Source of the DNA: a virus
Taxonomy: Duplodnaviria; Heunggongvirae; Uroviricota; Caudoviricetes
DNA: 8,130 bases
Reading direction: 5' to 3' (one strand)
Virus record (IMG/VR): IMGVR_UViG_2654587509_000003
Span: 1 to 8,130 of that record
Each line of letters opens with the position of its first letter. Within the stretch, counting starts at the first letter, position 1. Under the pieces are notes generated by a model. The model saw only the letters and a list, made by a program, of their open reading frames with translations. It was not told the DNA's origin and did not search any database. Positions 1 through 8,130 of the stretch are shown here, one piece after another. Made by a program: the position numbers and the translations under genes.

Positions 1-202
1 AAGCAGAAAAAGCTTATTATGCTTCCATCAGAAACGATGATCTGGCAGCCTGAGTTCACAGATAAAACACTCTCCAGGAAAACCGGGGCGGTTCAGTGTG
101 CATCGTTTTGATTATTCCCGCACACTCGCGCAGAAGGAATTCCCCGTCGGGCTACGGTCATGGTTAATGCGGGAATACGGCGACGATACAGCGCATAATG
201 TG

Positions 203-820
203 TCAGGCTTGAATACCTTTATCGAATCCCGGTAATAAAAACTGTCCCTGTCTCTCCAGACGTTCCAGCTTTGCAAGCAATTGAGGTTTTTTCGTTCTCC
301 CCCAGCGATTGAGCAGACGGCCTGACATGCTGGCGACATCCTTCTCTTTCATGTACTCCAGCATTACGGCGTTACGTTCTGCTTCATAACTTTCGCTGTA
401 CTTACGGAGTTCTGCTGACATCCAGTTAAACGCATTGATATAGGCTTCTTTAACAGCATCGGCTTTTGCCCCGTTAAATCCCATAACCAGCATAACGAAG
501 CCACTAAAGTCCATGCGGTAGTAAATCTGTTTCTTGTCAAAAATCCCTAAGTCATTGATTTTCTCGACGGCCCAAAAATGGGTTGTCGAGAATTCCTCAG
601 AACATCTCAAACATTTAATAGCCCTAATCACATGCTGATGGCGTTTACCAAATGCCCTGGCAATCTGGAAGGTGTCAGTTACCGGTTGACCTTCTGCTGC
701 GGTAACTAACTGGCGAAAGTCGAAGTCATGATTCGCAATTAATTCATTCATGGCGTTGCCTGCTTCTTTGAAATGAACCTTTGCCGCACAGGAAACCAGC
801 CCACCGAGGCTCGCCAGCAC
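203..820 (-). CDS. rha: Rha-family phage regulatory protein (antirepressor-like)
   Basis: 205-codon ORF. Motifs TDTFQIARAFGKRHQHVIRAIK and DFSGFVMLVMGFNGAKADAVKEAYINAFNWM match the conserved core of the phage Rha family as I recall it. Start is ambiguous: GTG at 820 with GAGGA upstream, or ATG at 751 (MNELIANHDF...). Confidence 0.7.
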   Translation of the reverse strand: MLASLGGLVSCAAKVHFKEAGNAMNELIANHDFDFRQLVTAAEGQPVTDTFQIARAFGKRHQHVIRAIKCLRCSEEFSTTHFWAVEKINDLGIFDKKQIYYRMDFSGFVMLVMGFNGAKADAVKEAYINAFNWMSAELRKYSESYEAERNAVMLEYMKEKDVASMSGRLLNRWGRTKKPQLLAKLERLERQGQFLLPGFDKGIQA

Positions 821-903
821 TAACTGGTATCCTCAAAGGCCCATTCCAAAGGGTCAGGTTCGGTGTTTATTGTGCGCTGCGGTGCGCGGTGAAATACCGG
901 TAC

Positions 904-932
904 AAAAATGCCCCGCATCTGCGAGGCATTTT
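904..932 (-). terminator. Intrinsic terminator-like hairpin downstream of Rz/Rz1
   Basis: aaaaatgcc-ccgc-atct-gcg-aggcatttt: about 8 bp stem plus 3 bp inner stem with a tetraloop, flanked by an A-run on one side and a T-run on the other (bidirectional-looking). Lies 38 nt past the Rz stop. Confidence 0.4.
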
Positions 933-969
933 CCTGAAAGTCACTTGTTAAATTTCAGTGAAATTAAAA

Positions 970-1407
970 TTATTTTAAGCACTGCGTCCTGATGTATTCC
1001 TGCAGGTAGTTAACCTGCGCGGTTATCTTGTCGATTCCACCTCGGAGACGGTAATAATTGAGTTCAGCATCTGCTGTAAGCCCTGGGCTTTCTCCATCGC
1101 CCATGCTGCTGGTTCCGGTCGTTGACTTTGCACAGGTGGCGGAGACTTGCAGGCGCTTACGACCAGCAGAAACATCGGCACGGAGACTTTCGATAGTCGC
1201 GTTAGCATCAGCAAGTTCCTTTGTATATCTTGCGTCGAGTTCTGCTACATCACGTTGACGCTTCTGCATATCAGCGATGATGGATGTGGCTTTATCGCGC
1301 TGCTCTTTGTAGGCGATGGCGTTATCACGGTAATGATTAACAGCCCATGACAGGCAGAGGATGATGCAAATAACCAGAGCGGAGATAATCGCGGTTACCC
1401 TGCTCAT
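970..1407 (-). CDS. Rz: Rz i-spanin (inner-membrane spanin subunit)
   Basis: N-terminus [30 protein letters not shown] closely resembles lambda Rz as recalled (N-terminal TM, then charged coiled-coil-like region). The ATG at 1407 overlaps the endolysin stop (ATGA). The track's start at 1419 is an upstream GTG extension. Confidence 0.85.
1023..1214 (-). CDS. Rz1: Rz1 o-spanin lipoprotein, embedded out of frame within Rz
   Basis: 63-codon ORF in the +1 frame inside Rz. Signal peptide with lipobox (LLVVSAC) followed by a Pro-rich mature region ([16 protein letters not shown]), which is the classic embedded Rz1 architecture. Confidence 0.75.
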
Positions 1408-1901
1408 TGCTGCCCCCACAAACAGACTTCACGCTCAATATCACGACGGGTCATCAGCCCTTTCCATTGCTTACCGCCAGCGTATGTCCAGCGACGTAGC
1501 TGGTCACATGCGCCTTTGATATCACCCTGGTTTATTTTGCGAAGAAGCGTCGATGTTCTGAAATTACCAGCGCCCACGTTGTAAACGAACGAGTAAAGAG
1601 CGCCGCGCGTTGTTTCCGGTATATCGACTTTGATGTACGGGTTAATTTGTCTGGCGACCGTGGCAAGGTCTTTATTCAGGAGGGCTTTGCATTCTGCTTC
1701 GGTATACGTTTTACCGGGAATGATGTCTTTTCCGGTGTGTCCGTGACATACAGTCCATACGCCAACGATATCTTCGTATGGTATGTAGCTGACACCTTCC
1801 AGGCCATCGTCACCACTCGGACCAGTGATGAGCACAGACGCTATGGCAACAGCCCCACCACCAATAGCAGCAGCAACAGCCTTGCGTAATGATGGCGACA
1901 T
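1404..1901 (-). CDS. R: SAR endolysin (phage lysozyme, R21 / RrrD-like)
   Basis: 165 aa. N-terminal Gly/Ala-rich weakly hydrophobic signal-anchor-release segment ([20 protein letters not shown]), then a lysozyme core with E...D...T spacing ([24 protein letters not shown]). Near-identical to the DLP12/P21-type lysozyme as I recall it. AGGTG Shine-Dalgarno; start overlaps the holin stop (TAATG). Confidence 0.9.
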
Positions 1902-2116
1902 TATTCACCTCTCGCAGCCTTACGCTTATCTTCTTTAATCTTGAAATAAAGGTTTGTCAGATACGTCAGCAAGCCAAACACCAGGCTACCCAATACGCCT
2001 ATTGCCACCCACTGGGATGGGGAGACTTTGTCCAGCAACTGCAGTAGCCAGTATCCCGTCCCCACCGCTGACGTGGTGTATGACACACCTGTTGTGATTT
2101 TTTCCATCTGGTACAT
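1901..2116 (-). CDS. S: Class II pinholin (S21-like) with dual-start motif
   Basis: 71 aa, [71 protein letters not shown]. Two TM segments and a charged C-terminus. Met1-Tyr-Gln-Met4 gives the antiholin/holin dual start typical of S21. The track's start at 2161 is an unsupported N-terminal extension. Confidence 0.85.
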
Positions 2117-2295
2117 ACCCCGTCTCCCGTTATCCGGAAGCTGACAACAATAAAAAGCCACCAGTTAATTCCTGATGGCCCTGATGCATAAACGTCATAA
2201 TACCTGACTGTTATGATTGACAATAATGATAATGTTTATATAGAAAGGTCCCCGATGTGTGTTACATATCATTTCTCCACGGGGAATATCCCCAC

Positions 2296-2346
2296 GCCAG
2301 CGCAGACTCTTTTACCCGTTCTCTTCTGCGCTGGCTCTTTTTTATT
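2296..2346 (+). terminator. Plus-strand intrinsic terminator (11-bp GC-rich stem, then TCTTTTTTATT)
   Basis: gccagcgcaga (2296-2306) pairs perfectly with tctgcgctggc (2325-2335) around an 18-nt loop, followed by tcttttttatt. The U-tract is only on the plus strand. A GGGGA-ata-TCCCC hairpin sits just upstream (2281-2293). Confidence 0.45.
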
Positions 2347-2524
2347 ATGCTGCTGCATTTACCTCTGGCACCAGGCTTTCTATCTCAACACAATACGTGG
2401 TACTTCTTGTAACCAATATCATAACGATTAATCGACATAGAATTTCTCCCGTGTACAGGAACAGAGTTAAAAAGCCGGAACCGGAATCAAATCACAGGAT
2501 GACCATCTGCCAGTGGCAGGTCAT

Positions 2525-2551
2525 AAAAAAAAGGCCGCGCCATGCGCAGCC
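2525..2551 (-). terminator. Strong minus-strand intrinsic terminator between the cargo gene and the holin
   Basis: Minus-strand RNA 5'-GGCUGCGC-AUG-GCGCGGCC-UUUUUUUU: 8-bp GC-rich stem with one G.U pair, 3-nt loop, then 8 U (plus-strand A-run 2525-2532). Confidence 0.55.
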
Positions 2552-2981
2552 AGAACTCACAAGGAAAATGATAGAAGGAAATAACATTAGTGATGTACGC
2601 ATGGCGCCTCCCGCTAAGTTCTGCAATGATCAAACAGAACTCGCTACGTGCCCTTAAAACTCGATCATTTAGCCCCTCCAAGGAGGATTCACCATGCGGT
2701 TGGTTTTTTAATAAACAGTAAACAAAAAAGTCAAGAATTATTCATTCTGTTCTTTCATCATCGGCCACAGCAATACCACAATGCCGCAGACCAGAGCGCC
2801 ATCAGTCAGTACCAACATTATCCTGCTGGTGAAATCCATCATCACCATCACTAAAAGCAGGATCACAACAGCAAGCAGACACAGTTTATAAAACAATGTT
2901 CAGAAAACGCATTCAGCATGCCTAAGGTTCTATTCCTACGAATAGCCAACTTGCAACTTAAAATATTATTTATGCAGCCAA

Positions 2982-3740
2982 TTAAATTCTGGTCCTTACA
3001 ATATCAACCTGAAGATTCTTATCTTGTGCTGATTGATAAATGACAAACCTTTTACTACCTGCATTGAAAGAAGTAGACAAAACCAGACAATTATCATAAC
3101 GAGCAAGAACATAATACCAACCATCATTATAATTAATCATTTCATATTCTTTCTTAAACTGCGGTTTGTAATATCCTGTCAGAAATGAAAAAAGCCAGAA
3201 ATATGCCACAAAAGCAATCATCACAATCTCAAAAAAATGTTTTTTTATAAATGGCTTATCATAGAAGCATGATACCGATAAAAATCGCCCATAAGATCTT
3301 ATCGAAATTGTAACCGCCAGCGCAATCGCTGCTGACAGTAGCAAAAGAGGTACCTGAATCTTCTGTCTCAATATAGAAAACTCAATAATTGCCGGCACAA
3401 ACAATAATTCCACAGCAAAATAAAGGCGAAATACATTTAGCTCTTGCATAGAATGTTTTCTTTTCACTGCGAAAAAGAATACAACACCAATACCCCAACC
3501 GATAAGAAATATAGCAATGACGATAACTGCAAAAAATAAACTTCTGGCAACATCATCAACACCTGCACCTACAATCCACCATGGGAAGCCGTAGTAAAAA
3601 GAAGTACCCCATCCATAGAAATAAGCACTCCCCCATCCAAGGCATCCCATGTAGGCAATAAAAAGTGAAGAACTCCTGAGCAGCGCACCATCCTTCATAA
3701 CCACCCCAATACAAGATGATAACATTGGCTTACAACTCAT
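2982..3740 (-). CDS. Hypothetical polytopic membrane protein, AT-rich cargo (moron) gene
   Basis: 252-codon ORF. The likely true start is ATG at 3698 (MKDGALL..., preceded by GGGGTGG); the ATG at 3740 has no Shine-Dalgarno. About 5-6 hydrophobic helices and a hydrophilic C-terminal tail of about 50 aa. Hand-counted GC of sample stretches is about 30-35%, against about 55% in rusA. No family recognised. Confidence 0.7.
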   Translation of the reverse strand: MSCKPMLSSCIGVVMKDGALLRSSSLFIAYMGCLGWGSAYFYGWGTSFYYGFPWWIVGAGVDDVARSLFFAVIVIAIFLIGWGIGVVFFFAVKRKHSMQELNVFRLYFAVELLFVPAIIEFSILRQKIQVPLLLLSAAIALAVTISIRSYGRFLSVSCFYDKPFIKKHFFEIVMIAFVAYFWLFSFLTGYYKPQFKKEYEMINYNDGWYYVLARYDNCLVLSTSFNAGSKRFVIYQSAQDKNLQVDIVRTRI

Positions 3741-3836
3741 AACAAAAGCAATTCAATGCCGTCAAGAGGTTACAGGCTAAAAAACTCTATTACATAGCAG
3801 CCAGCATGTTTACCGTACAAGTACAACTCAGGGCAT

Positions 3837-3860
3837 AAAAAAAACCCACTCGGCAGCGGG
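3837..3860 (-). terminator. Intrinsic terminator about 50 nt downstream of the Q stop (candidate tR')
   Basis: Minus-strand RNA 5'-CCCGCU-GCCG-AGUGGG-UUUUUUUU: 6-bp stem with one G.U pair, tetraloop, then 8 U (plus-strand A-run 3837-3844). Confidence 0.55.
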
Positions 3861-3908
3861 TTTATACATTTTTTACAACATACCAAATTTGCATGAAGTA
3901 TATGGCTT

Positions 3909-4598
3909 TTAATCCAGTTTTGCAATATTTTGCTGTAAAAATGCTGCCTTTTGTTTTGAACGTGTTCTCGTCACAAGCAATAAAGCATCACTATCAAGCT
4001 GTAGAAAAATGTGCTTCATTGCAACCCAGCGTTCAGTAAATGTCTCGGACCAGTTTTTTGTTGTCACTCCCACCAATGATGCCAGTGTCTGGTATTCATA
4101 GGCCTCACGCCCTGCAAGTTCGCTCTTCACATCCTGTGCAGCCAGCCAGATTAACGTCTTCAGGCGATCCAGTGTCTTACCTGCAATTTTTCTGTTACTT
4201 AACAAATCTTTAAACTCGCTCCATGCCCATTGCGTTATGGTGACCTGATGCCCCCATCGAACGCTTTCGCTGTAACACCAAAGCAACCATGCTTTCTGAT
4301 GTTCATCGAGAGACAAAACCGCGCGGCGCCATGAAGAGGTTGAGAATTCAACCGGGCTGACCAAAGCAATGGATGAACCTTTTGCGTACGACTGCTTACC
4401 GGAAGTCGGCGTATTATCCAGCGTAATCATCTTGCCAGTTACCACATCCAGAATGTGCGGCTTCTTTCGTTTGTATGTACCAGTATCAAATTGTGCATGC
4501 TCCTGCCAGGCTTCGAGCTGGCCTTTCGTTGCTCCGTTCAAGTCAGCAGTAGCTGCCATAAGTTGCTCACGAACATACTGTAAATATTGGGTATTCAT
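3909..4598 (-). CDS. Late-gene antitermination protein Q (QuuQ-like)
   Basis: 229 aa from ATG 4598 (MNTQYLQYVREQL...) with AAGGA 8 nt upstream. Sits between the rusA/ylcG block and the lysis genes, the canonical Q position, and resembles the E. coli Qin-prophage Q as I recall it. The track's longer ORF to 4682 overlaps ylcG and is an artefactual extension. Confidence 0.65.
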   Translation of the reverse strand: MNTQYLQYVREQLMAATADLNGATKGQLEAWQEHAQFDTGTYKRKKPHILDVVTGKMITLDNTPTSGKQSYAKGSSIALVSPVEFSTSSWRRAVLSLDEHQKAWLLWCYSESVRWGHQVTITQWAWSEFKDLLSNRKIAGKTLDRLKTLIWLAAQDVKSELAGREAYEYQTLASLVGVTTKNWSETFTERWVAMKHIFLQLDSDALLLVTRTRSKQKAAFLQQNIAKLD

Positions 4599-4612
4599 GC
4601 AGTAAATCCTTT

Positions 4613-4735
4613 CTATATTTTGGCATAATTCTTCAACATTCGGTAATCGTTCAAAACCGAATCGGGGAAACGACATAAGCACAGGAGCCCCCAGCGACAG
4701 CGAAGGAGTTCTGATATATAAGACTCAAACATCAT
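4613..4735 (-). CDS. ylcG: Small YlcG-like protein (40 aa)
   Basis: Translated by hand; not in the ORF track. [43 protein letters not shown] overlaps the rusA stop (ATGA). Resembles DLP12 YlcG in position and motif as recalled. Confidence 0.5.
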
Positions 4736-5094
4736 TCATCTCCCAGTTCAGTGATGGTCAGTTCCAGCTTCCCACCTTTGGTAACAGGCATCTTCACAAC
4801 GCGGTAATCAACGACCAGCTCATCATCCAGCCAGAAACCTGCTTTAGTGAGTGCGTCAAAAGCGGCTTTTTGCAGATTATCCTGGTCACGGCGACGGCGA
4901 TCCGGCATGTGGCACTCAATGCGGATTTTCACAGGCATAGCCAGACCGATATCCAGCATTGAGCCTTTAATGATTCGGGCGACGTTATCACGGTATGCCT
5001 GCCCTTCTGCGCTGATGTGCGTGCGCCCGCGATTATGCCTGTAGTAGCGGTTATTGCTCGGCGGCCAGGGTAGTGTGATGTGGTAAGTATTCAC
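4732..5094 (-). CDS. rusA: RusA Holliday-junction resolvase
   Basis: [43 protein letters not shown]...[31 protein letters not shown] is near-identical to E. coli RusA as recalled. GTG start at 5094 overlaps the ybcO stop (GTGA). The track's start at 5157 is an extension. Confidence 0.9.
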
Positions 5095-5381
5095 GCCTTG
5101 ATTACCCCCTCTTTCAGCCAGATAACCTGCGTTCTCGCCATACCTTCCAGCGAGCATTCTTTTGCGTACTCAGCATCGACAAAATGCGTGCGGCGGTCGA
5201 TTTCGTCGTGACAGGCAGAACAGGCAATGGTGGCAATAAGGTCTGGCGGTTTAATACCGGTACCGCACAATCCAGTCAGCCGGATATGTGCCAGTACAGA
5301 CGTTTCAGGGTTGCCATTACATACGCCAGGGATTCTTACCTGGCATTCCCGACCACGCGCTGCTTTTCTCAAATCAGCCAT
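5091..5381 (-). CDS. ybcO: YbcO-like DUF1364 protein (putative Zn-binding nuclease)
   Basis: [42 protein letters not shown]... with Cys/His clusters. Start ATG 5381 is preceded by AGGAGGA embedded in the ninE 3' end. The track's start at 5420 is an extension. Confidence 0.8.
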
Positions 5382-5544
5382 GACTCCTCCTTGCTGCCAG
5401 TCGCAACCATTTTTTATCAACCAGGCTGGCGGTATATCCGAGCAGTGTTGGTATTTCGGAAGGCTTCAGCTCAGGTTTACGCTTACGACGATTTGGTACT
5501 CTGTAAATGTGCCCGTTCATGACACGAATAAGCGGTGTAGCCAT
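5374..5544 (-). CDS. ninE: NinE (56 aa)
   Basis: Translated by hand; below the ORF track's length cut-off. [59 protein letters not shown] overlaps the ybcN stop (TAATG) and the stop overlaps the ybcO start. Confidence 0.8.
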   Translation of the reverse strand: MATPLIRVMNGHIYRVPNRRKRKPELKPSEIPTLLGYTASLVDKKWLRLAARRSHG

Positions 5545-5999
5545 TACGCCTCCTGCTTGTCGCGCAGCAGCTGGAACTCGCAGCTCGGCGGAATAGTCAG
5601 GTGGCAGCCAATATTCATCGCCCAGGCTTCAACCTTACACAGGAAGACATACATCTCTCCGGTATCAAGATCGGAGGTATGGCGTAACGACTGGATAGTG
5701 GTGATATCACCGGTTACGACATCAACCAGGTCTTTGGTTTCATAACCGAGATATGTGTGTTTGAGAGCATCTTTTACCCAAGCTGGAGTGGCGAACGTTT
5801 TACCCCTGCTGATGAGGTATTCACTGATTTCGCTGTACCACATGTGGCTGAGTGCATTCTGGGAAAGACTGCGTCTCTCGCGCCACGGTTTAAGCACCAT
5901 GCGAAAGCATTTGCCTTCCTCCAGATAAGGCTGGATCTGCTGACCGATAGCAGTGAAGTTACCACGATGCAATTTGATGCCGTCTTGTGGGAGGTTCAC
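5544..5999 (-). CDS. ybcN: NinB-family recombination protein (YbcN-like)
   Basis: 151 aa. The [23 protein letters not shown] core resembles the lambda NinB / DLP12 YbcN family. GTG start at 5999 with GGAGG 7 nt upstream. Confidence 0.85.
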
Positions 6000-6030
6000 G
6001 CTTCACCTCCGCAGAGGTCAAACGCTGGAT

Positions 6031-6132
6031 GCAAAAAATCGCAGGTGCATCTCTGCATCTGTGAAGGGAGAAGAGAGTTTGGATTGTATGTGCGCATAAA
6101 CGTCCCCGTTTAGCGCAGAAGTCACCGGAGTT
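6031..6132. repeat. Direct repeat copy A (~102 bp), immediately upstream of ybcN
   Basis: Aligned by eye to 7965-8066: 96 of 102 positions identical. Weaker similarity continues about 35 bp further right. Contains the TGCA-GNRA-TGCA mini-hairpin and a GGAG...CTCC hairpin. Confidence 0.85.
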
Positions 6133-6193
6133 GTTCAAGCTCCAATGGCATGATTATGGCTGGTTGATTATTGGAAATCAAATGTGCTGAAAA

Positions 6194-6703
6194 TTAGTCT
6201 GCCAAGTCTTCCTCAGTCGCAACTGGGTAATTCCAAATATCAAAAAAAGCTATAGCCTCCTGCCATTTGCTCCATAAGTTATCAAGTACTTGTGTAGGTT
6301 CCGTACTTTTAAAAACAGAATCAGCCGCATCACCGTTATGAACTTCCTCGTACAGTTCCATTATTAGCAGATTAACAAAGTACTGTTTCAACATTAATGC
6401 CTGATTACCTTCTTTCTGCTGGCTATCCTGCTTGATGATCTCCATCGCCCGTACTAGGCACCTGATGATATCCGCTGCATCATTAACGCTCCATTCAGAT
6501 CCGCGCTTATCTTTAGCTGATGAATTGGCTCTCTCAGCGCAAGCCTTTAAAGACTCATAAAGGTAAACTCTATTTTGTAGCTGCAGCGCTTTTTTTGACG
6601 TGTACCAACTTGCAAGCGCCGATCCCGCTGCGGCTAATGTGCCAAACGCAGAAATGCCTGCTGCTATTGCACTTAAGTCGGCACTGTCAAAGTTCCACAT
6701 CAT
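6194..6703 (-). CDS. Hypothetical membrane-anchored protein (169 aa), orphan
   Basis: ATG 6703 with AAGGTG 8 nt upstream. One N-terminal hydrophobic helix (LSAIAAGISAFGTLAAAGSALASWY), then a charged, probably helical soluble domain. GC about 36-38% by hand count. A terminator lies upstream (6879-6919) with an AT-rich promoter-like stretch between. Confidence 0.7.
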   Translation of the reverse strand: MMWNFDSADLSAIAAGISAFGTLAAAGSALASWYTSKKALQLQNRVYLYESLKACAERANSSAKDKRGSEWSVNDAADIIRCLVRAMEIIKQDSQQKEGNQALMLKQYFVNLLIMELYEEVHNGDAADSVFKSTEPTQVLDNLWSKWQEAIAFFDIWNYPVATEEDLAD

Positions 6704-6878
6704 CGTTACACCTTATATAAACACCCCTCAGTAATATCCAATAAGGTATGTGAACAATCAATATAATTTATATCCGTATCGGCACATAGCGATTTTAATG
6801 CTACTGATAATGGTATCTTTTAGATTATATCGTCCAGTTCCAGTACCCGTATTTTATGAAATGGACTCGCACATTACC

Positions 6879-6919
6879 AAAAAAAATGCCAGCACTTCCG
6901 TCATCGCAGAATGCTGGCA
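6879..6919 (-). terminator. Intrinsic terminator just downstream of the Bro-N-like gene
   Basis: tgccagca (6887-6894) pairs with tgctggca (6912-6919) as an 8-bp stem around a 17-nt loop; on the minus strand it is followed by 8 U (plus-strand A-run 6879-6886). Starts 20 nt past the gene's stop. Confidence 0.5.
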
Positions 6920-6938
6920 GTATTTCTAACTAGTGACT

Positions 6939-7547
6939 TTATTGCAACAGATTCTGACGGAAATATGGTAACACACGACTCCACTTATCATCCTGCCACG
7001 GTTGGAATTTTACATGCGCCGTTTCTCTGGCAAGGGTTTCTCGCGCCCTGTTGAGTATCCGAGGATATTCTTGTTCGATTGAAGTGAATCTACCTGCTTC
7101 GCGATGCTCTGCGACCTGAAGAAGGGGCGTAACGTTCTGGCAGGCGGTTAACATCGTATCACTTGCTCGCCATAACCAGGAGAGTGTGCAAAGTTCGTTA
7201 TCAGTGAATTGTTTTGTGATTGGGGATTGTTGAACTTCTCGATCGAGAATATCCAGAACCCAGCGGCGGAATTCTTTGGCCACAGGAGTACGAGCAAACA
7301 TGGCGATCAAATGGGCTCCGCGAAGGCTAAATACTCGAGACTCCTGCATTCCACGAGGGGTGGTCACTTTGACCACCCTTGTCATCATATCTGTGAATTC
7401 ATCTGAGTGCCGAGAGTAAATGCGCTGAACTGCTTTATCGTCCGCATATTCCAGTGCTAAACCAACTTCAGTGGCAGTAAGCCAAATTCTGTTATTGTGG
7501 CAAATCGGGGTAAACGTCGTTTTGTGGAATGCTAATTGAGTAGTCAT
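6939..7547 (-). CDS. Bro-N / antirepressor-like DNA-binding domain protein (Roi/Ant-like) with uncharacterised C-terminal domain
   Basis: 202 aa. N-terminal NNRIWLTATEVGLALEYADDKAVQRIY...RVFSLRGAHLIAMFARTPVAKEFRRWVLDIL fits the Bro-N / ORF6N-type pattern as recalled. GAGGTG Shine-Dalgarno before ATG 7547. GC about 55%. Confidence 0.6.
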   Translation of the reverse strand: MTTQLAFHKTTFTPICHNNRIWLTATEVGLALEYADDKAVQRIYSRHSDEFTDMMTRVVKVTTPRGMQESRVFSLRGAHLIAMFARTPVAKEFRRWVLDILDREVQQSPITKQFTDNELCTLSWLWRASDTMLTACQNVTPLLQVAEHREAGRFTSIEQEYPRILNRARETLARETAHVKFQPWQDDKWSRVLPYFRQNLLQ

Positions 7548-7571
7548 AGTATCACCTCATCAGGTTAACCA

Positions 7572-7604
7572 TCACCACCAACGACGCCAATCGACTGGTG
7601 GTGA
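7572..7604 (-). promoter_or_regulatory. Perfect 9-bp inverted repeat (TCACCACCA-N15-TGGTGGTGA) in the upstream/5' region of the Bro-N-like gene
   Basis: Seen directly. Could be a protein operator or a 5'-UTR hairpin. No U-tract follows, so it is not a terminator. Confidence 0.3.
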
Positions 7605-7703
7605 ACTGTGTAAGGTTGGCGTAACCGGCTACTCAAACCCGGCGCTTCCGAAGAAGCCCTCACACAGCCCACCATAATTTGGGCATAGCCGTGCTTAGCG
7701 CAC

Positions 7704-7724
7704 AAAAAAACCGCTTAACGCGGT
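7704..7724 (-). terminator. Modest intrinsic terminator (tR-like) upstream of the Bro-N-like gene
   Basis: Minus-strand RNA ACCGC-GUUAA-GCGGU followed by 7 U (plus-strand A-run 7704-7710). Confidence 0.4.
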
Positions 7725-7810
7725 ATGCGTTGAGTAGTATCCCGGGACGCCAATCCCGTGTGCCGATTTTGCGGCAACGCACAGAATATAGCGCCGGATA
7801 AATCATGTCG

Positions 7811-8059
7811 TCAACCCCAGTAAATGGACACCATGATGATCACAGCCATAGCTGCTACAACAGTTACAACTACCTCAGGCCAAAACATAACGATTTCCAT
7901 ATCACCTTTAGCCGCCAGACGAATAGAGACTCCCAATTCTGGCTGTCGAAGTAAAACACCGAATGTAAAAAATCGTAGGTGCATTTCTGCATCTGTGAAT
8001 GGAGATGAGAGTTTGGATTGTGTGTGCGCATAAACGTCCCCGTTTAGCGCAGAAGTCAC
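7811..8059 (-). CDS. Hypothetical small protein (82 aa) with hydrophobic C-terminal segment; N-terminus encoded by repeat copy B
   Basis: GTG start inside the repeat. C-terminal MEIVMFWPEVVVTVVAAMAVIIMVSIYWG looks like a TM helix. No obvious Shine-Dalgarno, so coding status is uncertain. Confidence 0.3.
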   Translation of the reverse strand: MTSALNGDVYAHTQSKLSSPFTDAEMHLRFFTFGVLLRQPELGVSIRLAAKGDMEIVMFWPEVVVTVVAAMAVIIMVSIYWG

Positions 8060-8066
8060 CGGAGTT
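7965..8066. repeat. Direct repeat copy B (~102 bp)
   Basis: Partner of 6031-6132. The six differences are at repeat positions 2, 12, 21, 36, 41 and 58. Confidence 0.85.
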
Positions 8067-8130
8067 TTTTAGGCTCCGATGACAACATTATGGCTTTTTT
8101 ATTTCTAAATTCAAAACTTGAAAATATTAA

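Follow-up and report, generated by a model that had tools for sequence, protein, structure and literature searches.

This work concerns a gene for a 169-amino-acid (aa) protein, hereafter ORF169 (6194..6703, minus strand), in an 8,130-nucleotide (nt) stretch of Caudoviricetes DNA, positions 1 to 8,130 of the IMG/VR record IMGVR_UViG_2654587509_000003 (hereafter the window, meaning the whole stretch analysed). The window is the early-right, nin and lysis part of a DLP12-like lambdoid prophage of Escherichia coli, read on the minus strand. We tentatively propose that ORF169 is a self-contained accessory gene of the moron type, which would be transcribed independently, tethered to the membrane and able to interfere with superinfecting phage. 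The parts of this proposal differ in strength, and each is considered below together with the explanations that compete with it.

ORF169 is a conserved gene of a narrow family

That ORF169 is a real protein-coding gene seems to us practically certain. The open reading frame, present in the list of reading frames as an earlier reading made from the letters alone (hereafter the sequence-only reading) had it, starts with an ATG at 6703, and the good Shine-Dalgarno sequence also noticed there was located 5 nt before this codon (AAGGTG, 6709..6714, minus strand), at a position where the relatives present a purine-rich GAGG/AAGG block. When compared with relatives at 70–75% identity, the proportion of nonsynonymous differences (pN) is 0.14–0.18 and that of synonymous differences (pS) 0.67–0.71, corresponding to a dN/dS of approximately 0.09, which indicates a gene under purifying selection and not a chance reading frame. 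The coding sequence is further supported by family alignments, by an AlphaFold2 model and by a match to the PHROG 1779 profile that runs from end to end (E 1.2e-102, 342 bits, residues 1–169 against positions 1–169 of 169).

The gene was described as an orphan, which does not hold. Besides being a member of PHROG 1779, ORF169 is present in 180 (approximately 3%) of 5426 complete E. coli genomes, the outbreak strain O104:H4 2011C-3493 among them, and in two isolated phages, PhiR26_1 and PhiR5_1; its exact sequence occurs on at least 1000 contigs, and its 90%-identity cluster contains 460 member sequences, every one of them named 'hypothetical'. Since PHROG 1779 has no assigned function, membership is uninformative on the role of the protein. 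An exhaustive profile search against 1.84 billion representatives retrieved just 35 clusters (50% identity) at E ≤0.001, from which the family appears to be small and narrow, yet real; its full-length clusters are nearly all single-domain proteins of 150–180 aa. One relative with 79% identity (protein P0002, L052 5001-5510) is an apparent pseudogene copy, with a frameshifted N-terminal part and two in-frame stops.

The composition of the gene had to be corrected. ORF169 was said to be AT-rich, with 36–38% guanine plus cytosine (GC); we measured 43.9% (42% at third codon positions, GC3), against 47.3% in the antirepressor-like gene (ant) upstream, 50.9% in the ninB-type gene downstream and 45.9% in the window. 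The GC content is, thus, only modestly under that of the neighbours, and the sole clearly AT-rich part around ORF169 is the 235-nt upstream spacer (6704-6938; 36.6% GC).

Signals surrounding ORF169 suggest an independent transcription unit

Upstream of ORF169 we identified an intrinsic terminator (6879..6919, minus strand) that ends the unit of the antirepressor-like gene, the isrK-orf-ant unit. It is composed of a 13-bp bulged stem (6919-6887) followed by eight uridines (6886-6879), with a folding energy of -18.6 kcal/mol and a z-score of -3.5, and none of 200 shuffled sequences was as stable. The bulged, extended stem explains why it escaped a simple scan; the sequence-only reading had rightly placed a terminator between ORF169 and the Bro-N gene. 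Judging from RNA folding, this element should insulate ORF169 from the isrK-orf-ant unit.

A promoter-like region had likewise been suggested in the AT-rich spacer, and a conserved sigma-70-type motif is in fact found there (6733..6761, minus strand), formed by a -35 element TTGATT (6761-6756), a 17-nt spacer and a -10 element GATATT (6738-6733), with an A/T-rich stretch just upstream. The pattern TTG-N20-GATATT matches the window once, against an expectation of 0.12. The motif occupies the same offset from the start codon in most of the related loci compared and is kept in every diverged lineage down to 50% protein identity except L057, L013 and L014, also where (at 50–79% identity) the upstream genes are unrelated; L013 and L014 present at that position a TATAAT element with a hairpin after it. 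When eight lineages (50–96% protein identity) are aligned, TTG and GATATTA are invariant and the flanks diverge (mean column identity 68%), and homology to a relative at 79% identity starts just approximately 25 nt upstream of the -35 element. Invariant hexamers, diverging flanks and this point of onset together suggest that the promoter-like block travels with ORF169. A promoter listed by a generic scan at 6880-6851 was given no weight, as it overlaps the U-tract of the terminator. We infer that a weak or moderate sigma-70 promoter would transcribe ORF169 independently of the early operon and, this being so, probably also in the lysogen.

The -10 element is bracketed by an imperfect inverted repeat (6721..6749, minus strand), a degenerate version of the perfect one seen in relatives (ATACCCTGA...TCAGGGTAT). 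It is present as a single copy per locus, at the -10 site only, and its pairing is conserved, with 82.6% of the cells pairing versus 32–47% when the partners are slid. Covariation is weak, the observed score being attained by 72 of 500 shuffles. The repeat may serve as an operator or form a 5' hairpin, and it may regulate ORF169.

Downstream of the gene, canonical terminators directly follow the stop codon in three relatives (L055, L058 and L065; z -2.4 to -3.8), and the nearest 3' candidate in the window is a weak hairpin at approximately 6059-6029, inside a repeat element described below. The claim of an independently expressed insertion, thus, finds support in the conserved promoter-like motif, in the terminators of the relatives and in the absence of the cassette from DLP12, all at the level of sequence, and on these grounds we regard ORF169 as a probable independent transcription unit.

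ORF169 behaves as a free-standing gene in the slot between replication and nin genes

The sequence-only reading placed ORF169 between the Bro-N-like gene and ybcN, and domain matches and context tables agree. The upstream neighbour is the antirepressor-like gene (6939..7547, minus strand; Bro-N and P22AR_C domains, by Pfam and PHROG matches), and downstream lies ybcN (5544..5999, minus strand), which is of NinB type (NCBIfam PRK09741 at 5.4e-83) and, according to the context tables, the first gene of the nin module. The position given, inside the conserved nin block, needs to be revised, as ORF169 sits at the left boundary of that block, in a variable slot between the replication genes and nin. 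The comparison with related prophages lacking the cassette, proposed in the same reading, was informative: K-12 DLP12 does not contain ORF169, ybcL-ybcM fill the slot, and homology to the window resumes at 6182, 11 nt past the ORF169 stop. Among the E. coli genomes, the flanking sequence was found in 2938, versus the 180 of 5426 that have ORF169.

In homologues at 44–79% identity there is no ant nearby; the upstream genes are DUF551-like or unassigned and end 35–110 nt away, and downstream, almost without exception, comes a NinB, YbcN or DUF1367-type gene. Relatives at 18–29% identity belong again to lambdoid prophages, either between replication and nin genes (L068 and L071), in the leftward N...xis-int operon (L065 and L067) or in a degraded prophage remnant (L062). 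The family tracks no particular replication or NinB type. The behaviour of ORF169 is that of an accessory gene standing by itself within lambdoid early regions.

We also considered whether ORF169 is a functional component of the module that precedes it, for instance a modulator of the antirepressor. This module includes, on the minus strand and as detected with Rfam, a C4 antisense-like RNA (7594-7679; 74.8 bits) and isrK (7704-7776; 58.7 bits), both above the gathering threshold, and a c4 a1/b1 target (7739-7791) whose 39.6 bits are under the gathering value of 46.7, with a 46-aa open reading frame amid them (7705..7565). By these matches, the region 7594-7791 together with ant is identified as a homologue, in a DLP12-like prophage, of the antirepressor switch of P1 immI (c4-icd-ant) and of Gifsy-1 (isrK-orf45-anrP), and the gene directly upstream of ORF169 belongs to it. 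Salmonella lysogens express the small RNAs of the Gifsy-1-type isrK/ant unit (PMC7067206). All E. coli loci of 96% identity or more have ant, complete or at least in its 3' (P22AR_C) half, directly upstream of ORF169 and ylcH-ybcN downstream, as would be expected of a component. Nevertheless, the strong terminator separates the two genes, ORF169 is intact both in O104:H4, with ant left as a pseudogene remnant, and in strain A34, with ant reduced to its C-terminal part, and all the homologues at or below 79% identity are without ant. In addition, the Gifsy-1 unit isrK-orf45-anrP-isrJ ends at isrJ (PMC4825925). Because ORF169 lies beyond the terminator of the unit and occurs elsewhere without it, it seems to be no part of the isrK/C4-ant system; functional coupling to the antirepressor was rejected, and we take such a role, largely refuted by the context data, to be very improbable.

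The N-terminal helix of ORF169 is a probable membrane anchor

ORF169 comprises a short acidic N-terminal tail, an Ala/Gly/Ser-rich hydrophobic helix (residues ~10–33), a helical bundle (~40–155) and an acidic C-terminal tail (...ATEEDLAD). The AlphaFold2 model, obtained with 25 family sequences (mean pLDDT 85.2), displays a continuous helix at residues 7–63, a compact bundle at 73–154 and a short C-terminal helix. The proposal of one transmembrane helix is supported by evidence at the level of the family and is marginal for this protein, in which the stretch ~10–33 (AIAAGISAFGTLAAAGSAL) is weakly hydrophobic, with a value of 1.59 for the best 19-residue Kyte-Doolittle window and a Hessa delta-G of +2.7 kcal/mol. 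In the family, delta-G ranges from -1.2 to +4.0 kcal/mol and is negative in five of the 24 normal-length members.

The protein could instead be soluble, the helix being an Ala/Ser-rich packing or oligomerisation helix of the Alacoil type, an alternative that we regard as possible, if rather unlikely. It agrees with the positive delta-G of ORF169 and of 19 of the 24 normal-length members, with the small residues conserved on one face of the helix and with the single long helix, continuous with the bundle, in the AlphaFold model. However, in the same window similar scores are obtained for the holin helix (+0.6) and the lysozyme signal-anchor helix (+1.1), and the charges flanking the helix are strongly asymmetric throughout the family: in the 24 normal-length members the N-terminal flank has 3 lysine plus arginine (K+R) versus 28 aspartate plus glutamate (D+E) residues, as compared with 77 K+R versus 32 D+E in the 15 residues following the helix. 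The hydrophobic moment is low (0.12–0.37), with a mean Eisenberg hydrophobicity of 0.56–0.82, and in the homologue P0042 the helix is the last of four hydrophobic segments, behind three clear transmembrane helices. Charge asymmetry, low hydrophobic moment and the P0042 fusion favour a true anchor with N-out/C-in orientation, and on balance we lean towards the N-terminal helix being a membrane anchor.

The Ala/Ser-rich helix would, accordingly oriented, insert in the inner membrane, leaving the acidic N-terminal tail in the periplasm and the bundle and acidic C-terminal tail in the cytoplasm. Its small residues on one face (A15, S18, A29 and S32) suggest helix-helix packing. Conserved polar positions are few (S32, Q43, N60 of the AxRAN motif, W71 and W147) and none looks catalytic, so that ORF169 would act by binding rather than by catalysis. 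Most family members end with an acidic tail, D-E-D-L-x-D, and the isoelectric point (pI) of ORF169 is 4.6.

ORF169 resembles morons and no characterised exclusion protein

The sequence-only reading could name no motif in the protein, and our searches bear this out. ORF169 has no match in Pfam, NCBIfam or PADLOC (PADLOC-DB v2, E up to 1), in the Pfam and PADLOC scans of 25 family members the only hits were scattered ones to individual members, attributable to chance (PADLOC E 0.0018 or weaker), sequence searches of the PDB gave no match, whether the query was the protein itself or the family profile, and fold searches against the PDB and viral structure libraries gave no informative one.

Several candidate identities were rejected. 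For a HEPN toxin, the best HepT comparison in Foldseek had an E-value of at least 0.27 and a TM-score of at most 0.33, and the family has no Rx4-6H motif and no conserved histidine, the conserved motif being AxRAN. SieB of lambda and P22 resembles ORF169 in being a small accessory protein of the lambdoid early region with hydrophobic N-terminal helices, and some ORF169 relatives have, like lambda sieB, their gene immediately downstream of N; yet lambda sieB is antisense to the pL operon, whereas the ORF169 family is always co-oriented, the hhalign probability is 0.1%, and neither ORF169 nor the 25 members match Pfam SieB (PF14163). P22 SieA is an inner-membrane blocker of DNA injection with three predicted transmembrane segments and the motif FxRYPxEAxxFNK, encoded between genes 16 and 9 (PMC10883804). 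It is similar in size (162–164 versus 169 aa), prophage-borne and membrane-associated, as is predicted for ORF169 from its anchor; its defining features are absent from ORF169, which has one marginal helix, lacks the motif and adjoins ninB.

The closest likeness is to morons, which consist of extra DNA with deviant GC content, carry a promoter and a terminator of their own and are expressed from the repressed prophage, gene 15 of HK97 being the lambdoid type example (PMC3594210). At the sequence level, ORF169 shares with them the extra DNA relative to sister prophages and an own promoter-like motif; terminators occur upstream of it in the window and after the stop codon in several relatives, and it likewise encodes a small, probably inner-membrane, protein. 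It differs from them in the small size of its GC deviation. The HK97 protein itself (gp15/YebO) was rejected as an identity, since its defining features do not match; it is unrelated to ORF169, which gave no Pfam match, and ORF169 is located in the early region, not in a tail operon.

The role of ORF169

From the membrane, ORF169 might interfere with a superinfecting phage; speculatively, it could block entry or an early step, or cause abortive infection through oligomerisation of its helix. Exclusion or abortive infection, as put forward in the sequence-only reading, is a reasonable leading hypothesis, since sister phages carry defence or competition cargo in this slot, namely genes for PD-lambda-1, a pyocin-S-like protein and an AAA_15 ATPase. 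Resting on context and analogy, an anti-phage role is to us possible, though doubtful. More doubtful still is the broader proposal that PHROG 1779 and its distant relatives are an unrecognised, single-gene, prophage-expressed and membrane-tethered anti-phage factor, with a fold without detectable relative, which would bind a phage or host component through the bundle and the D-E-D-L-x-D tail and be controlled by the inverted repeat.

The main rival to the anti-phage role, which we place at the same low level, is that ORF169 is an ordinary delayed-early lytic gene, transcribed mainly by read-through from pR (pL in some relatives) under N-type antitermination and aiding phage development, for instance through host takeover or counter-defence, instead of serving the lysogen. 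Every locus has the family member in the orientation of the early operon, most diverged relatives lie 35–110 nt behind the upstream gene, like an ordinary delayed-early gene, and the distant relatives in the N...xis-int operon (L065 and L067) or between replication and nin genes (L068 and L071) are positioned accordingly. The profile of an acidic, non-enzymatic binder is likewise compatible with phage inhibitor proteins, and the terminator at 6919-6879 would not stop an antiterminated polymerase. Nevertheless, a promoter-like motif conserved across lineages would be needless for a gene transcribed purely by read-through, several relatives have canonical terminators right after the stop, and ORF169 is dispensable, being absent from most related prophages.

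Both the constant co-orientation and the short upstream gaps weigh against our reading of ORF169 as an independently transcribed, membrane-tethered moron, and so do several other observations. The promoter-like hexamers each match the consensus at four of six positions, and the site is absent from the list of the generic promoter scan; no terminator is found in the window within 64 nt after the ORF169 stop (z -0.19); the GC deviation is small; and the N-terminal helix is the weakest but four in the family. To these are added the domain, PADLOC and fold searches that returned nothing informative and the literature searched, in which we found no mention of the 169-aa protein.

Another explanation is that ORF169 is a lysogenic-conversion factor unrelated to phages, an envelope-associated protein that would alter stress tolerance, envelope homeostasis or division. 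The probable membrane anchor and the lack of a catalytic motif are compatible with such a factor, non-defence cargo (emrE, ybcL and ybcM) occupies the same slot in other strains, and morons are reported to have diverse host-directed roles (PMC3594210). However, the occurrences of the family were all in early regions of lambdoid prophages and none at a non-prophage chromosomal locus, and the Pfam and NCBIfam scans showed it to resemble no host protein family; we consider this explanation unlikely, below both the anti-phage and the delayed-early roles.

If ORF169 is expressed from the prophage and protective, it would represent a new family of single-protein exclusion or abortive-infection factors with a new fold, and the slot between replication genes and ninB in lambdoid prophages would be a cargo site worth mining; if it is a read-through early gene, it would be one more ordinary hypothetical phage gene. 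ORF169 is a sensible candidate for phage-challenge assays, but one that would not surprise a specialist, and its genetics should be straightforward, as approximately 3% of the complete E. coli genomes and the phages PhiR26_1 and PhiR5_1 have the gene.

Direct repeats flank the cassette and the slot receives varied cargo

The segment of approximately 1.8 kb that contains ant and ORF169 is flanked by a 156-nt direct repeat (6014-6169 and 7948-8103; 87% identical). By the repeat search and the start of DLP12 homology, copy 1 extends over 6014..6182 (minus strand), at the nin module's left end, forming the right junction of the cassette; copy 2, approximately 87% identical and delimited by the repeat search and the DLP12 comparison, extends over 7948..8116 (minus strand), the left flank of the cassette, upstream of isrK/ant.

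The element at 6014-6182 contains a conserved promoter-like sequence, TTGATT-17-CATAAT (6181-6153), a ylcH-like start and the weak terminator-like hairpin at approximately 6059-6029 mentioned above. In this nin-left element, of approximately 160 nt, we identified two hairpins with covariation between phages in their stems: one has a conserved loop (GCCUGAACAAC), the other a GGGA (GNRA) loop, and the latter hairpin sequesters the ylcH start codon. The element is also present in L075 (8283-8437), L004, L005, L013 and L014, and an Rfam scan of it gave no family match. It may be an undescribed structured leader, a small RNA or an antitermination-type element preceding ninB.

Other genes were observed in the slot between replication and nin genes. 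In PhiR26_1 (L002 2842-4344), a gene annotated as PD-lambda-1 lies in antisense between ren and the cassette of ant and ORF169. Also antisense to the early operon are a pyocin-S-like gene with a small adjacent open reading frame in L068 (6673-9389) and an AAA_15/AAA_21 ATPase gene in L071 (6900-8804). The content of the slot in L068 and L071 is consistent with a cargo region for competition or defence.

Other features of the window

In the direction of transcription, the window contains a small hydrophobic open reading frame, isrK with the C4-like RNA, the antirepressor-like gene and ORF169, followed by ylcH-ybcN, ybcO, rusA, Q, an AT-rich membrane open reading frame, the holin, lysozyme and Rz genes and a Rha-like gene.

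The AT-rich membrane open reading frame (2982-3740, minus strand), between Q and the holin gene, encodes a 252-aa multi-helix membrane protein, with 36.5% GC (GC3 31%), that matches PHROG 1521 and has no Pfam, NCBIfam or PADLOC match. In other prophages its slot is occupied by nmpC/ompC or stx, and it is a clearer AT-rich moron than ORF169. Between this open reading frame and the holin gene, the segment 2522-2727 (minus strand) has a sub-threshold Rfam match to the sRNA STnc100 (37.5 bits, gathering 47; E 1.8e-5).

The Q antiterminator gene (3909-4682, minus strand) is listed with 257 aa, the Pfam domain starting only at residue 32; the true start is probably an internal ATG, since relatives are annotated with 229 aa. 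The RrrD-like lysozyme (1404-1901, minus strand; 165 aa) presents a basic N-terminus followed by an Ala/Gly-rich, weakly hydrophobic segment, typical of signal-anchor-release endolysins. Finally, between copy 2 of the direct repeat and isrK, an open reading frame at 7811-7900 (minus strand) encodes a very hydrophobic peptide of 29 aa (MEIVMFWPEVVVTVVAAMAVIIMVSIYWG; Hessa delta-G -1.5), with a longer, GTG-started form at 7811-8059. It is unannotated in the matching RefSeq genome and could be a small membrane peptide or a toxin-like gene.

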